Source: Candidatus Liptonbacteria bacterium
Lineage (GTDB): Bacteria; Patescibacteriota; Minisyncoccia; UBA6257; 2-01-FULL-56-20
Reading direction: 5' to 3'
DNA length: 64,000 bases
NCBI GenBank assembly: GCA_016867315.1
Contig: VGJV01000004.1
Location: 37,431 to 101,430 of the forward strand
Part shown: in pieces, positions 17,542-21,248 of the stretch
Layout: every line of letters begins with the position of its first letter
Numbering within the stretch: position 1 is the first letter of the stretch
Position numbers and translations under genes: made by a program
Notes under the pieces: model-generated
What the model saw: only the letters and a program-made list of their open reading frames with translations
Databases searched by the model: none
What the model was told of the DNA's origin: nothing

Positions 17542-18525
17542 ATGGCTGACTATACGGGCATGAGTACGACGAGACCGCGAACTACGGCGGGGGATTTTTT
17601 CTTGCATTTGGGAGTGGTAGCCACGCTCTATTTTGCCGCAGGGAATCTCATTTCTTTACTATTCGACATTATAAATATTGCTTTCCCAGATAGGCTTTCT
17701 CGAGTCACGGATTTCTATTCTTCAGGCATCCGCTTTGCACTCGCGTCGCTCATCATCATTTTCCCGTTATATTTATACTTGAACCGCTATCTTGCGCGCG
17801 ACATGGATCGCTCGCCGGAGAAGCGTGATTTAGGGATCCGCAAATGGCTCTTCTACTTCACTCTTTTTCTTGCGGGCGCGATCGTAGCGGGGGATTTAGT
17901 GGCGGTGTTGAACACCTTTTTGCGCGGAGAGATCACGGTGCGATTTATATTGAAAGCCCTTACCGTACTTCTCGTGGCGGGCAGCGTATTTTGGTATTAC
18001 CTTAAAGAACTGCGTTCTGCGACGCCCGGCTCACTTACGCGAGTATGGAATATTGGCTCAGGAGTTGTAGTGCTTGCCGCAGTGATTGGCGGGTTCATGG
18101 TGAGCGGCTCTCCCATGCGGGCGCGCGACTTGCGTTTCGATGAACAGCGGGTAGGCGATCTTCAAAATATCCAGTGGCAGGTGGTGAACTACTGGCAGAC
18201 CAAAGGTAAATTACCCGCATCGCTTGCCGAACTCAAAGACCCGATCGGAGGCTATGAAGCGCCTCGCGATCCCTTAACCGATGCGGCCTACGAGTATTCC
18301 GTAAAAGGTGAGCGAGTTTTCTCTTTGTGCGCCACCTTCGCGCTACCCACCCGCACGGATGCGTTCGGAAAATCGATTTCTGAAAGCTACTATGGTCCCT
18401 CGACGGGAGATAATTGGCAGCACGAGGAGGGAAGAACTTGTTTCGACCGCACAATCGATCCTGAGCGTTATCCGCCTCGCACCTCTGAACCTGTTCCCGT
18501 GAAGCCAATCCCGGCACCGAGATAG
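17542..18525 (+). CDS. hypothetical polytopic membrane protein with C-terminal soluble domain
   Basis: 327 aa; about 6 TM helices in N-terminal 190 aa; no family recognised. Confidence 0.4.
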   Translation: MADYTGMSTTRPRTTAGDFFLHLGVVATLYFAAGNLISLLFDIINIAFPDRLSRVTDFYSSGIRFALASLIIIFPLYLYLNRYLARDMDRSPEKRDLGIRKWLFYFTLFLAGAIVAGDLVAVLNTFLRGEITVRFILKALTVLLVAGSVFWYYLKELRSATPGSLTRVWNIGSGVVVLAAVIGGFMVSGSPMRARDLRFDEQRVGDLQNIQWQVVNYWQTKGKLPASLAELKDPIGGYEAPRDPLTDAAYEYSVKGERVFSLCATFALPTRTDAFGKSISESYYGPSTGDNWQHEEGRTCFDRTIDPERYPPRTSEPVPVKPIPAPR

Positions 18526-18694: not shown

Positions 18695-19408
18695 ATGATA
18701 TTCTCATTGATAGAAACTGCAAAATCCGAGCGACGACAGCCAACTGGTAATGAAAAAGAGCAATTCCGGAGGCAGCTTCGGGATATGGAAGACCGGTATA
18801 TGGCGGGCGGCATGGTTCCTGGAAAGGGACTTACCGCCACTCTTCAAAAAATTTCAGAAGGGTGGGTACTCAACGAAGCGGGAATCGCGGTGCCAGAGCG
18901 ACAGCCAACCGAGCTTTTCCTGGATAAACCTATTCAGCACGCCCATCTCCAATTTATTTCGGAGTTTGAAGCGGAAATCCCTGTGGATGCCACACTCGAC
19001 AGCACTCCACGCACTGCATATTGCCCAGGCGGGTGGAATTCGAATATCACCGACTCGAATTTCCGCACCTCGCTTGTGCCGGGGAAGAAGTATATGGCCG
19101 AAGTCTATTGGCTGCGCCGGAACAAGAGTTCCGAATCCCTCGTAAAAATCGCTGATGAGCAAAAGCGAATCTTGCCGGGAGCTTTAGGCGGTGCAATCCT
19201 TACGAGCCGTTATGGAGACAAACTCCCGAAAGATTTCTGGGTAGTGTGTCTCGACAAGCCGGAAAACCTTTGGCGCGGTGCGGGCGTCTTGCTTGTCCCG
19301 TTCTTCCGCTGGGATGGCATCGGTTGGAACTTCTTCCTGAGCTTCTGGCTCGGCGTCTGGGATCAGGGCTTCTACATCGTGCTTTTCCGCGAGGTTTCAA
19401 ATCCTTAG
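18695..19408 (+). CDS. DGR target protein (variable region occupies the last about 40 codons)
   Basis: 237 aa ORF with AAGGAG RBS; its 3' end (19268-19390) is a near-repeat of a downstream template differing only at template adenines; W/G-rich C-terminal tail ending ...QGFYIVLFR. Confidence 0.8.
   Translation: MIFSLIETAKSERRQPTGNEKEQFRRQLRDMEDRYMAGGMVPGKGLTATLQKISEGWVLNEAGIAVPERQPTELFLDKPIQHAHLQFISEFEAEIPVDATLDSTPRTAYCPGGWNSNITDSNFRTSLVPGKKYMAEVYWLRRNKSSESLVKIADEQKRILPGALGGAILTSRYGDKLPKDFWVVCLDKPENLWRGAGVLLVPFFRWDGIGWNFFLSFWLGVWDQGFYIVLFREVSNP
19268..19390 (+). repeat. DGR variable region (VR)
   Basis: 123 bp aligned to TR at 19759-19881; about 23-25 mismatches, every one at a position that is A in TR; identical 3' segment TACATCGTGCTTTTCCGC then divergence (IMH-like). 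Confidence 0.85.
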
Positions 19409-19758
19409 TCCTTGGGACTTTGGATCAATTGAGCTTGGACCCTTGGGCACTTTGTGCTTGAGGGTTCTCGCATTTTTGTATACTGAATCTGGATAGTAGG
19501 CGAATATGCGCGCGGTCAAGCCTGCCTGCCGGTAGGCAGGACTTCGCGCTGCCGAATTCTCGATAGGCATGTGGAGAATCGCGCCGGGCAAGCCTGCTTG
19601 CTAGTAATGAGCCTTGCGCGAGAGGCATATGCACTTCGCAAAAAACTGAAACACTCGGTGCGCTTCGCTAAGTGATTAGATAATTTCGAGATCACGAATT
19701 CGATACAATCCCGAGAGCTTTCATAGAGGGATGGTGGCGCAGATGGCGCGGCGCACAT

Positions 19759-19881
19759 ATATGGCGCGATGCGAACGACTTGCATGTCCCGAACTTCAAC
19801 TGGAATGACAACGGTTGGAACTTCAACCTGAACATCTGGAACGACGACTGGAATCAGGGCAACTACATCGTGCTTTTCCGC
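19759..19881 (+). repeat. DGR template repeat (TR)
   Basis: Non-coding copy of VR rich in AAC codons (13 AAC/AAT/GAC codons); all VR/TR differences map to TR adenines. Confidence 0.85.
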
Positions 19882-19888
19882 TGCTGTT

Positions 19889-20285
19889 TCATTTCTCCTC
19901 CTTTCCGGGGGAGTTTTGCTTTATGAGTTGGTTATGCCACCCACCAAGCATCCGCCCGACTTCGGCAAGCGGTTCCGAAAGCACAATGTATTTTTTCTCG
20001 CCGAGTACTTTTATTTCCCACGCAAGTGCAAGGAGGCATTTCGCCGTGTCGAGCACCGTAATCGCGCGCTTTACATAGGATAATTTCTCGGATTTAGAAA
20101 GAAAGCACGCAGTTACGGTGTGCTCAATTGTAGCGATAAGGAGTGCGTCAATCCGCGCGGCGAGCGTGTAGCGCGAAGTTTTTGGAATTTCAGGCAGGCA
20201 TTCGTGCCAAAGCTTGTACGCGGAGGTAAGCTTTTGAAGTACGATTGGATGCCGTGGGGGGGGGGCTTTGAGGAATAAAATTCAT
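19889..20285 (-). pseudogene. avd: accessory variability determinant (avd), frameshifted in a G10 tract (intact 131-aa ORF if tract were G9)
   Basis: Minus-strand translation ...IVLQKLTSAYKLWHECLPEIPKTSRYTLAARIDALLIATIEHTV...AKCLLALAWEIKVLGEKKYIVLSEPLAEVGRMLGGWHNQLIKQNSPGKEEK*, with AEVGRMLGGW close to the Bordetella-phage Avd AEVGRILGSW region; ATG at 20283-20285 is in the -1 frame relative to this ORF across the homopolymer at 20256-20265. Confidence 0.7.
20256..20265. repeat. G10/C10 homopolymer tract inside avd 5' end and 21 nt upstream of the RT start codon
   Basis: gccgtGGGGGGGGGGctttgaggaataaaattcatATG; candidate slipped-strand or sequencing-indel site. Confidence 0.9.
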
Positions 20286-21248
20286 ATGTTTGAGAATATT
20301 ATCGCAGTCGATAATTTACTCGCGGCGTGGAAAGAATTTCTACGCGGCAAGCGCACAAAGCGCGACGTGCAAGAGTTTTCCCTGCACTTGATGGACAACA
20401 TCCTAACCCTTCACGAGGAACTTCGCAACGGCACCTACCAGCATGGCGCATACAAGCACTTTCGGATCTCCGATCCGAAACCGCGCGATATCCATAAAGC
20501 CACGGTGCGCGACCGATTACTCCATCACGCCATATACCAAGTCCTTTACCCCCACTTCGACACAAAACTTATCTCTGATTCTTTCTCTTGCCGCAATGAG
20601 AAAGGCACGCATCGCACGATGCACCGCTTCCGCGAGTTTGCGTACAGAGTAGGTCGCAATCACACGCGAACGTGTTGGGTATTGAAATGCGATATTAGAA
20701 AGTTCTTCGCTTCTATTGATCAAGAGATACTTATACGAATTCTTCGCACTCACATTAGGAACGAACGCACGTTGAATATTCTTGGAGTAATAATCAACAG
20801 CTTTTCTTCCGGTGAGCAAGGCAAAGGCCTTCCGCTCGGGAATCTTACTTCGCAACTTCTTGTGAATATCTATATGAACGAGTTTGATCAGTTTATGAAA
20901 CACAAACTTCACGCAAAGTATTATCTCCGCTACGCGGACGATTTTGTGATTCTTTCTCCAAACAGGCAGTGTCTAGAACTCATTATGCCGGAAATTGAGG
21001 CATTTCTTTGGAATCGCCTGAAGCTAAAACTCCATCCCGAGAAAGTTTTTATCAAAACCCTTGCCTCCGGTGTGGATTTCTTAGGATGGGTGCATTTTCC
21101 CGACCATCGCGTGCTGCGGACGGCGACGAAGCGGCGGATGTTCAAGAATGTGGCGAATAATGGAAAATCGGCAACGCTCGAATCGTATCGGGGGCTTTTA
21201 AGTCATGGCAATGCAAATAAACTTTCCGAGCAGCTTTTTTTGCGCTAG
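20286..21248 (+). CDS. DGR reverse transcriptase
   Basis: MFENIIAVDNLLAAWKEFLRGKR N-terminus, RT motifs incl. LPLGNLTSQLLVNIYMNEFD (DGR-type I/LGxxxSQ motif 4) and YLRYADDFVIL (YxDD); 321 aa; GAGG RBS 11 nt upstream. Confidence 0.9.
   Translation: MFENIIAVDNLLAAWKEFLRGKRTKRDVQEFSLHLMDNILTLHEELRNGTYQHGAYKHFRISDPKPRDIHKATVRDRLLHHAIYQVLYPHFDTKLISDSFSCRNEKGTHRTMHRFREFAYRVGRNHTRTCWVLKCDIRKFFASIDQEILIRILRTHIRNERTLNILGVIINSFSSGEQGKGLPLGNLTSQLLVNIYMNEFDQFMKHKLHAKYYLRYADDFVILSPNRQCLELIMPEIEAFLWNRLKLKLHPEKVFIKTLASGVDFLGWVHFPDHRVLRTATKRRMFKNVANNGKSATLESYRGLLSHGNANKLSEQLFLR

Follow-up and report, generated by a model that had tools for sequence, protein, structure and literature searches.

Is the retroelement that lies beside leuS in this 64,000-nt stretch of DNA (hereafter, the window) a genuine diversity-generating retroelement (DGR), and what is to be made of an avd gene whose start codon is separated from its body by a run of ten guanines? 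CPR genomes are already known for their abundance of DGRs, and we are confident that the locus is a genuine chromosomal DGR of CPR-typical layout, hosted by Candidatus Liptonbacteria (Patescibacteria). Its elements follow in the order target gene with variable region (VR), structured RNA, template repeat (TR), reversed avd, and reverse transcriptase (RT). The preliminary description of this DNA had called it a complete DGR. The DGR interpretation is supported, as every element that it named is present, whereas the word "complete" holds only conditionally, because the G10 tract puts avd out of frame with its ATG. The locus is one more member of the CPR DGRs, ordinary for that group, and nothing structural sets it apart; what appears to be new is the repeat within the avd start and an unmodelled RNA 5′ of the TR.

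The VR (19268..19390, + strand), which makes up approximately the last 41 target codons before the final six, aligns without gaps to the TR (19759..19881, + strand) at a fixed offset of 491 nt. Our recount gave 25 mismatches where about 23 had been claimed, and an alignment check bore out the claim that they are confined to TR adenines, i.e., all 25 fall on the 34 adenines of the TR and none on its 89 non-A positions. The probability of this arrangement arising by chance among 123 positions is P = 6.3e-19. The substitutions comprise 13 A>T, 9 A>G, and 3 A>C, and 33 of the 34 TR adenines fall on the first or second base of a codon in the target frame. The TR is rich in AAC, as described (9 AAC codons plus 2 AAT codons), and the 22 variable codons of the VR can reach ~10^19.7 protein variants, none of them with a stop. 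On the 5′ side, homology stops at 19267/19758, where a non-A position has a C/T mismatch, and on the 3′ side at 19391/19882. At the 3′ ends of the VR and TR, where an IMH/IMH*-type asymmetry would be expected, the last 30 nt are the same except for two A-site changes, and the 3′ flanks beyond them diverge yet are partly similar (GAG-GTTTCAAATCC versus TGCTGTTTCATTTCTCC).

In the orthologous loci L003 and L005, the VR/TR differences are likewise restricted to A sites (10/10 and 19/19, respectively). That the TR equals the VR at all 89 non-A positions argues for recent homing. The consensus VR shows no difference among the assemblies that include it (four others, with L001, L103, and L104 among them), and since the comparison was one of consensus contigs, any ongoing diversification is putative. 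An A-tolerant search of both strands of the 64 kb for a second VR or a remote target returned only the VR and TR described here. Protein look-ups with the RT, target, and LeuRS for more contigs of the same population yielded only short or non-overlapping ones.

The target gene (18695..19408, + strand) encodes a variable protein of 237 aa, in which N-terminal helices are followed by a C-terminal domain (approximately residues 80-237) that a structure-based route assigned to the C-type-lectin fold; in this model, the last ~40 residues are the VR. A C-terminal VR on a scaffold that tolerates variation, be it a C-type lectin or an Ig fold, is one of the features by which DGRs are recognized, and the target shows this arrangement by its predicted fold. 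Searches of the target by sequence (Pfam, NCBIfam, and phmmer/profile searches of the PDB) gave zero matches, and all the source names listed for its family are "hypothetical protein" or a placeholder. The first AF2 model of the target, built from 8 sequences, was too poor (pLDDT 59) and was discarded. Inspection of the target by eye revealed no obvious signal peptide or membrane segment. A target homologue was also encountered on a phage-like contig, and the possibility of a DGR there was dropped, as no RT, avd, or TR was found in its 12.5 kb. Beyond the target stop codon, a terminator scan uncovered a GC-rich 14-bp hairpin followed by a T-run (19437..19477, + strand), of which the hairpin (19437-19467) is retained in L003 and L005 with compensatory changes. 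It is likely the target-gene terminator and is possibly a VR-proximal hairpin of the type known from other DGRs.

The RT gene (20286..21248, + strand; Pfam RVT_1, E 4e-24) encodes a DGR-type enzyme of 320 aa, not 321 aa as first given, and the motifs that had been ascribed to it are both present, namely GLPLGNLTSQLLVNIY (LGNLTSQ) and RYADDF (YADD). An alternative TTG start at 20268 fits the usual N-terminal extension of the RT family and would overlap the avd start head-to-head. The closest solved structure is a 328-aa RT (PDB 8ub7-8ube; 160 bits, E 7.5e-46), a chain that we take to be the Bordetella phage bRT, whereas group II intron RTs reach at most 74 bits and retron RTs at most 28 bits. 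By these PDB scores, the RT stands nearer to DGR enzymes than to either of the other classes, in agreement with the preliminary description. In addition, tblastn matched the RT to phage RTs at 36-39% identity (ANMV-1, five Bordetella phages, Bacteroides phages, and crAss-like phages), and several of the matched phages carry DGRs. Identity is 72-73% to the RTs of L003 and L005 and 60-73% to more than 585 MAG-encoded RTs in genome contigs; 80 of these relatives were retained, and nearly all are labelled as Patescibacteria/CPR or unclassified MAGs.

The avd gene (accessory variability determinant) does lie between the TR and RT, as had been stated, but it requires a correction of strand: it is encoded on the minus strand (19889..20285), antisense to the TR and RT, with its body in one frame at 19889-20251 and its ATG at 20285-20283. 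Its product scores 50.7 bits against Pfam PF22296 bAvd (E 2.9e-13; gathering cut-off 40) and 65 bits against NCBIfam DivGenRetAVD, under the equivalog cut-off of 80. Divergent avd and RT genes occur in every related locus with enough upstream DNA. The chromosomal setting next to leuS was confirmed by the flanking genes, which encode MetRS, TatD, an M24 peptidase, a NUDIX protein, a methyltransferase, LeuRS, and HtrA. The antisense avd appears to correspond to the "B3" layout, which Wu et al. 2017 (PMC5758913) assign to 90% of the DGRs in CPR genomes.

Two further elements flank the TR. Directly 5′ of it lies a structured RNA domain of ~265 nt (19491..19756, + strand), preceded by a -10-like TATACT at 19479-19484 and detected by nhmmer upstream of the TR in about 60 related loci. 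In a 41-sequence alignment (A8), 43 of the 49 predicted pairs show compensatory changes, and 95% of the cells are paired, compared with 70.5% in shuffles (0/500) and 36-50% with slid partners; conserved G-U pairs place the domain on the + strand. Rfam 15 gave no match at E<=1 over 19380-20320 on either strand, and none at the gathering thresholds over the whole window (RT-10, the other RT motifs, and group II intron and retron RNAs included). Directly 3′ of the TR, the terminator scan found a stem-loop (UUCUCCUCC/GGGGGAG) and then UUUUGCUUU (19893..19923, + strand). The stem-loop (19893-19913) overlaps the final avd codons on the opposite strand, and a GC-rich hairpin with a U-tract is found at the same site in many related loci. 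This element is a candidate for an Avd-binding stem-loop and/or an intrinsic terminator of the TR RNA; of 278 DGRs examined by Handa et al. (bioRxiv 10.1101/2023.10.23.563531), 207 have an Avd-binding stem-loop just 3′ of the TR. A duplex between GGAUAGUAGGCGAA, at the start of the 5′ RNA domain, and the 3′ end of the TR was proposed by RNAalifold on three close relatives and was abandoned as a feature of the family. Across 41 loci, duplex energies were no better than those of shuffles (mean z -0.1) and the sites were inconsistent; this upstream/downstream duplex, to be compared with the cPRT-stop duplex of Handa et al., is thus unsupported across the family.

The G10 tract (C10 on the avd strand) occupies 20256..20265, where it intervenes between the ATG of avd and the body of the gene, 2-20 nt upstream of the RT start. 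It is the sole G/C run of at least 8 or A/T run of at least 9 in the window, and 586 kb of related loci hold one genuine G/C run of at least 8 elsewhere. A simple repeat is present at the tract position in all 88 distinct related loci (G5-G14 or GA/GT/CT repeats), with 76 carrying G8-G14 and 5 carrying GA, GT, or CT. Six-frame translation places the avd ATG of this assembly one base out of frame with the Avd body, ahead of which no in-frame ATG, GTG, or TTG is found. The metagenome contig L001 has G9 where the window and L002 have G10, the sequences being otherwise the same over 3,261 nt, and in L001 avd is intact at 131 aa; at in-frame loci, Avd ORFs measure 129-146 aa. This G9/G10 pair is the single clear case in which a length polymorphism in otherwise identical sequence gives in-frame and out-of-frame alleles. 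The tracts of L096 (G11) and L097 (G8) leave the same frame, and six contigs of one related population are all G9 and all out of frame. Logan contig L103 terminates exactly at the tract.

The avd ATG is conserved at the nucleotide level: the RT codon antisense to it is CAT in 60 of 64 loci, whereas CAT makes up 55% of the remaining His codons (p 6.5e-12). No stop interrupts the frame of the ATG before the tract in 60/60 loci, while the two alternative frames are open in 6/60 and 17/60. Part of the avd leader frame runs antisense to RT codons, an effect that could by itself reduce its stop content. Relative to the body, the ATG is in frame at 12 of 60 loci, and the other two states account for 25 and 23. 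Since offsets of +1 and +2 occur equally often (25 vs 23), a programmed frameshift of a single sign was rejected. Compensation by alternative starts was also rejected, as a downstream TTG/GTG is not associated with the out-of-frame state (Fisher p 0.35). The Avd homologue is under purifying selection, with an avd dN/dS of 0.065-0.081 versus L003 and L005, all three loci being out of frame.

What, then, might the tract do? In the contingency loci of Neisseria, Haemophilus, and Campylobacter, phase-variable genes carry poly-G/C tracts or short repeats at the 5′ end of their coding sequence, and a position within the 5′ coding region, as expected of SSR phase variation, is what we observe for the avd repeat. 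We see an even chance that Avd is gated by slippage in this repeat, which would thereby control retrohoming, and our belief is equally balanced on the assignment of states, in which the G10 of this assembly would be "off" and the co-occurring G9 "on". The clade-wide form of the proposal is that the avd repeat switches or throttles hypermutation stochastically and that the ~265-nt RNA 5′ of the TR replaces the 3′ spacer RNA; we advance it tentatively, with slightly more doubt than belief.

Following the Bordetella phage paradigm, a + strand RNA would be made that comprises the 5′ structured domain, the TR, and the 3′ stem-loop, and an RT-Avd complex would bind this TR RNA. Reverse transcription of the TR would then misincorporate at random opposite adenines, and the cDNA would replace the VR, resampling 22 codons (~10^20 variants, no stops) on what would be the ligand-binding face of the lectin. 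Avd would be translated from its conserved ATG, where the gene overlaps the RT start region, reading through the poly-C tract. Slippage of the tract, at the DNA or RNA level, may thus determine whether Avd is made and, in turn, whether retrohoming takes place. Counting against such a switch, only 12/60 loci are in frame, and the six same-population contigs that are all G9 and out of frame are unlike a rapidly flipping switch selected for "on".

Those same figures would suit constitutive slippage decoding, without on/off states, in which RNA polymerase and/or the ribosome slips on the C-run to yield a steady small fraction of in-frame Avd and the tract serves as a throttle keeping Avd and mutagenesis low. 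The 12:25:23 distribution of frames holds no in-frame preference, avd is under purifying selection even in out-of-frame loci, an out-of-frame G9 is fixed across the six assemblies of one population, and slippage is established for homopolymer runs of at least 9, the known precedent being A/T runs. We nonetheless regard this explanation as unlikely, if one to be taken seriously: the 5 loci with dinucleotide repeats have substrates that suit DNA slippage and are poor for transcriptional slippage, and the G9 and G10 alleles coexist in DNA. It is distinctly improbable, in our judgment, that the repeat is a transcriptional or UTR element, such as a variable promoter spacer or a feature of the RT 5′ UTR, with Avd starting 3′ of the tract. 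Variable spacers are known in the divergent promoters of Bordetella fim and Haemophilus hif, the tract is flanked by divergent genes, with the RT start 2-40 nt downstream of it, and roughly half of the loci have, shortly after the tract, an in-frame TTG or GTG that could act as an independent Avd start. Against such an element stand the antisense ATG kept at the nucleotide level (60/64 CAT) and the frame open to the tract in 60/60 loci, and in 47 of 89 loci, including the window and L005, no ATG, GTG, or TTG follows the tract ahead of Avd helix 1. Position profiles anchored on the tract revealed no conserved -10, -35, or SD-like element at a fixed distance from it.

Could the element simply be decaying, with avd a frameshifted pseudogene, the DGR dead, and the VR frozen? 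An avd without an in-frame start under G10 and a VR consensus that is the same across the covering assemblies would both fit, but we consider decay very unlikely, given an Avd body that has no internal stop and a dN/dS of ~0.07, the same "defect" at the same spot in 48/60 relatives, a G9 allele within the same population, an intact RT, and a TR equal to the VR wherever the TR lacks adenine. As for a plain diverged direct repeat beside an unrelated group II intron or retron RT, its probability is close to nil. The best NCBIfam model for the RT is indeed a group II intron RT/maturase (148.6 bits), and no DGR-RT model is among its NCBIfam matches; yet that score is under the model cut-off of 300, Rfam matched no group II intron or retron RNA, Avd is present, and the adenine-only mismatch spectrum (P 6e-19) refutes this explanation.

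A slippage-gated Avd would resemble contingency loci in several respects: an 8-13 G/C homopolymer or dinucleotide repeat just 3′ of the start codon, a mix of in-frame and out-of-frame states across assembled genomes, a one-unit polymorphism (clear here in a single case) in a background that is otherwise the same, and purifying selection despite "off" alleles. Contingency loci gate surface antigens or restriction enzymes, whereas the putative gated gene here is a cofactor of targeted mutagenesis in a CPR host. With the Bordetella phage BPP-1 DGR (mtd-VR, avd, TR, Sp RNA, brt), the locus shares adenine-specific TR-to-VR transfer, the RT motifs I/LGxxxSQ and YxDD, a four-helix Avd protein, a target with a C-terminal VR and a (here predicted) C-type-lectin fold, and a stem-loop just 3′ of the TR. 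Unlike the phage-borne BPP-1 element, it is chromosomal, its avd lies on the opposite strand between the TR and RT, and the 5′ coding part of that gene holds a repeat tract; it also has a large conserved RNA 5′ of the TR, whereas BPP-1 has a 140-nt spacer 3′ of the TR, and it shows no match to Rfam RT-10, the model of that spacer. Like the RT-associated RNAs of Rfam (RT-1 to RT-19), the domain is a structured RNA contiguous with the TR and on the TR strand, but it measures ~265 nt, lies upstream of the TR, and matches no family in sequence or structure. In the literature searched, we found no account of the repeat tract, of avd and RT starts that overlap head-to-head, or of an RNA domain 5′ of the TR; the survey of CPR/DPANN DGRs by Paul et al. 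2017 may hold an earlier description of the tract. The host group and small uncharacterised targets are shared with the "B3" DGRs of CPR/DPANN (Wu et al. 2017, PMC5758913). As with the Avd-binding stem-loop of Handa et al. (bioRxiv 10.1101/2023.10.23.563531), the stem-loop of this locus comes straight after the TR.

The clade-wide features outweigh the locus itself, which is one more chromosomal CPR DGR. Based on the structural model, the target family, formerly nameless, can now be assigned to the C-type-lectin fold. The 5′ RNA domain provides a covariation-supported structure for probing template recognition by RT-Avd, in a lineage that has an antisense gene in place of the phage-type spacer. 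If Avd is indeed gated by its repeat, this would explain the truncated or missing avd in many MAG annotations and would advise caution against calling such DGRs defective, and it would offer DGR engineers a natural on/off module. A gated Avd would also amount to two-tier bet-hedging, with a contingency switch placed over a mutagenesis engine, and would explain how a dangerous mutator is kept mostly silent in symbionts with tiny genomes while ~10^20 receptor variants are sampled.

In a gap-free alignment (offset 491 nt), the variable region (VR, 19268-19390) and template repeat (TR, 19759-19881) of the diversity-generating retroelement (DGR) differ at 25 positions, not the roughly 23 of the preliminary description. 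When tabulated by TR base, all 25 differences fall at adenines (13 A>T, 9 A>G, and 3 A>C), and the 89 non-A positions of TR are identical in VR; with 34 adenines among 123 positions, this restriction has a chance probability of 6.3e-19. In the frame of the target ORF (18695-19408), 33 of the 34 adenines occupy codon positions 1 or 2, and TR includes nine AAC and two AAT codons. The 22 variable codons can yield ~10^19.7 protein variants, none with a stop codon. Given the adenine-only mismatches, the codon bias, the AAC design, and the lack of stops, the earlier account of the repeat pair was correct except for its mismatch count. VR is strongly hydrophobic and rich in F, L, and V, owing to the 13 A>T substitutions. 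An A-tolerant search of the 64 kb turned up no additional VR.

The reverse transcriptase (RT) ORF (20286-21248, + strand) was correctly located, but it encodes 320 aa rather than 321, with a match to Pfam RVT_1. Its best solved-structure match is a 328-aa RT (entries 8ub7-8ube; 160 bits, E 7.5e-46, residues 3-306), which we take to be bRT of Bordetella phage; the PDB table gives no organism. This RT is closer than group II intron RTs (≤74 bits in the PDB search) or retron RTs (far lower), and the DGR-type motifs singled out earlier line up with it: LGNLTSQLLVNIY with IGSLTSQLFANVY of bRT, and YADD with YMDD. The NCBIfam matches include no DGR-RT model; the top one, a group II RT/maturase, scores 148.6 bits, far under its cut-off of 300. 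A tblastn search of phage genomes returned full-length matches (36-39% identity) in 180 records, including ANMV-1, Aeromonas, Pseudoalteromonas, and Vibrio phages, five Bordetella phages, and Bacteroides and crAss-like phages.

The 400 nt separating TR and RT hold an Avd homologue on the - strand (body, 19889-20251). Thus, the avd gene listed in the preliminary description is present, exceeding the gathering cut-off of Pfam bAvd (50.7 versus 40 bits) but not that of NCBIfam DivGenRetAVD (65 versus 80 bits). The layout appears to be the B3 architecture, which Wu et al. (PMC5758913) report for 90% of the CPR DGRs in their set, and a chromosomal CPR DGR with a reversed avd is already well known. 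The chromosomal, leuS-adjacent setting was borne out by the housekeeping neighbours (MetRS, TatD, M24 peptidase, NUDIX, methyltransferase, a DUF5671 membrane protein, LeuRS, and an HtrA-type protease) and by ten tRNA genes in the window. The target gene is directly preceded by the gene for the DUF5671 multi-pass membrane protein (17542-18525); because this neighbour is not kept beside the DGR of the orthologous locus L003, it is probably unrelated to the DGR.

A scan of one genome per species yielded more than 585 RT relatives, of which 80 were retained, almost all labelled as Patescibacteria/CPR or unclassified MAGs. Wherever a retained locus extended far enough upstream, and likewise in 17 metagenome loci, the gene directly upstream of RT was avd, on the opposite strand. 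The closest orthologous loci, L003 and L005, have the same part order, with targets 64-65% and RTs 72-73% identical to those of the window, and their TR/VR differences are likewise all at adenines (10/10 and 19/19). In L003, a Patescibacteria MAG, the DGR adjoins groES/groEL. In each of two Kaiserbacteria MAGs, a pair of DGR loci of this clade was present, one per contig (L024 and L069; L092 and L093).

Sequence searches of Pfam, NCBIfam, and PDB, profile searches included, gave no match for the 237-aa target (18695-19408, + strand); an identical protein from a Candidatus Liptonbacteria MAG is on record as a hypothetical protein. An exhaustive profile search gathered a family of 274 cluster representatives, mostly of 150-270 aa; the source names shown are all "hypothetical protein" or placeholders, and the organisms, where named, are Patescibacteria or an unclassified "bacterium". 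Comparison of the predicted fold retrieved the Bd2740 C-terminal domain (7.6), CD72 CTLD (6.5), SUMF2 (6.1), the Legionella Lcl C-terminal domain (5.8), Treponema TvpA (5.3), and Bordetella Mtd (4.8), and Foldseek weakly gave the same kind of fold. On the basis of this structural model, the target is predicted to be a small lectin-fold variable protein. Judged by eye, its sequence shows no signal peptide or membrane segment. A 191-aa homologue (59% identity) with a VR-like C-terminus is encoded at 1963-2538 of a phage-like contig with a large terminase (L004/L107; Logan SRR8426594_318622), with no RT, avd, or TR within 12.5 kb, which hints that the family is also present in CPR phages.

The 350 nt from the target stop codon to TR are as conserved as coding regions, and nhmmer recovered the region 5' of TR in the same position in ~60 loci. 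Directly 5' of TR lies a structured RNA of ~265 nt (19491-19756) with strong covariation in 41 loci, assigned to the TR strand by invariant G-U pairs. RNAalifold placed seven helices with 49 pairs on the 41-sequence alignment, 43 of them with compensatory double changes. Cells were paired in 95% of cases versus 70.5% in column shuffles, none of 500 shuffles reached the observed value, and sliding partners by 1-3 columns reduced pairing to 36-50%; the covariation score was 0.79 versus 0.29. Two of the hairpins share the loop motif (G/A)UUACGGYU, and a -10-like hexamer (TATACT, 19479-19484; TAnAAT-like in relatives) precedes the conserved 5' GGUAGUAGG. No Rfam 15 family matched the RNA at gathering thresholds or at E≤1, and so RT-10, the family covering the spacer of Bordetella phage BPP-1, is also unmatched. 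Long-range pairing of the beginning of the RNA domain with the 3' flank of TR, predicted from three close relatives, was unsupported across the family and was rejected as a family feature.

Directly after TR, a GC-rich stem-loop with a U-tract (19893-19923, + strand), which has equivalents in many relatives, is embedded in the last avd codons (19889-19913, - strand); the avd stop codon is only 7 nt from the TR end. The stem-loop looks like an intrinsic terminator. It also fits, by analogy, as a candidate for the Avd-binding stem-loop inferred just downstream of TR in 207 of 278 DGRs (Handa et al., bioRxiv 10.1101/2023.10.23.563531).

The only plausible avd ATG in the window (20285-20283) directly adjoins the RT ATG (CAT|ATG) but is offset by one base from the frame of the Avd body, which has no in-frame ATG, GTG, or TTG ahead of it. 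Between them lies a G10 tract (20256-20265), the sole G/C run of ≥8 in the 64 kb. A repeat occupies this avd/RT junction in all 88 distinct related loci. Poly-G ranges from G5 to G14 with a mode of 10 (G5, 1 locus; G6, 3; G7, 3; G8, 12; G9, 20; G10, 26; G11, 12; G12, 3; G13, 2; G14, 1), and the other 5 loci have (GA)n, (GT)n, or (CT)n of 12-21 nt instead. Across the other 586 kb of these loci, just one further genuine G/C run of ≥8 occurs. In one related locus (L055, ~730-790), a stretch of N and then of more than 40 C's separates avd from RT, apparently an artefact of scaffolding or assembly at the repeat.

Three results from these sequences say that the tract lies inside the avd coding sequence. 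The RT N-terminus of related loci has a conserved His (consensus M-K-I-Q-F/L-x-H). This His is encoded by CAT in 60 of 64 loci, compared with 55% of 1,254 other His codons in the same RT genes (p 6.5e-12), so that conservation of the antisense avd ATG extends to the nucleotide level. The frame of this ATG is stop-free to the tract in 60/60 loci, and the other two frames are open in 6/60 and 17/60 (Fisher 1e-18). Finally, a start codon (ATG, GTG, or TTG) is missing from the interval that separates the tract from the conserved Avd N-terminal motif (l-L-P-V-L-E-K-L...) in 47 of 89 loci, the window and L005 among them. Hence, avd and RT start head-to-head, with an overlap of about 21 nt in a typical family member. 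Such starts are found at 20268-20285 of the window and in related loci; in a typical relative, the avd leader peptide (M-x-x-L-N-F-H) includes a His whose codon, read on the other strand, is the RT ATG. Twelve related loci (L024, L027, L031, L035, L041, L061, L076, L080, L090, L093, L094, and L102) have no ATG, GTG, or TTG at which RT could start in the stretch from the tract to the conserved RIQF-x-H motif; RT translation may begin there at ATT or, alternatively, upstream of the tract.

The conserved ATG is in frame with the Avd body in 12 of 60 loci, which encode avd ORFs of 129-146 aa, and is at +1 in 25 and +2 in 23. These equal +1 and +2 numbers exclude a programmed frameshift of one sign. 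Avd dN/dS is 0.065-0.081 among the window, L003, and L005, all three out of frame, which indicates strong purifying selection on avd despite its out-of-frame ATG. The simplest reading is that Avd production would depend on slippage in the repeat, which, according to comparative statistics, would gate or throttle Avd. Slippage could occur in DNA, as phase variation like that of classical contingency loci, or it could be slippage by RNA polymerase or the ribosome, giving low constitutive Avd. One JGI contig of the same population (L001) matches the window over 3,261 nt except for a G9 tract, which gives an intact 131-aa avd ORF, and a second (L002) has G10. Reasons for caution are that six assemblies of one population share the same out-of-frame G9 and that a TTG or GTG downstream of the tract could serve as a start in roughly half of the loci. 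In an independent assembly, the Logan contig L103 (SRR16108675) ends precisely at the tract's final G (20265), compatible with read heterogeneity or a homopolymer coverage drop. The VR consensus is the same in all assemblies of the window's population that cover it (L001, L103, and L104), including the G9 ("on") contig. No conserved promoter-like motif was found at a fixed distance from the tract in related loci.

Collectively, this locus combines a repeat pair that differs only at TR adenines with an intact DGR-type RT, a conserved Avd homologue, and a lectin-fold target. It also has a conserved structured RNA contiguous with TR and, in the 5' region of avd, a repeat that relatives share. No description of the clade-wide avd repeat, of the overlapping head-to-head starts, or of the RNA domain 5' of TR was found in the searchable literature, outside which Paul et al. 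2017 falls; judged by title and abstract, none of the papers listed on DGRs and homopolymers seems to deal with such a tract. By analogy with the BPP-1 paradigm, an RT-Avd complex would bind the TR-containing RNA, TR would be copied with misincorporation opposite A, and the resulting cDNA would replace VR. The repeat may act as a contingency switch on a targeted mutator, a role to which we assign slightly less than an even chance.
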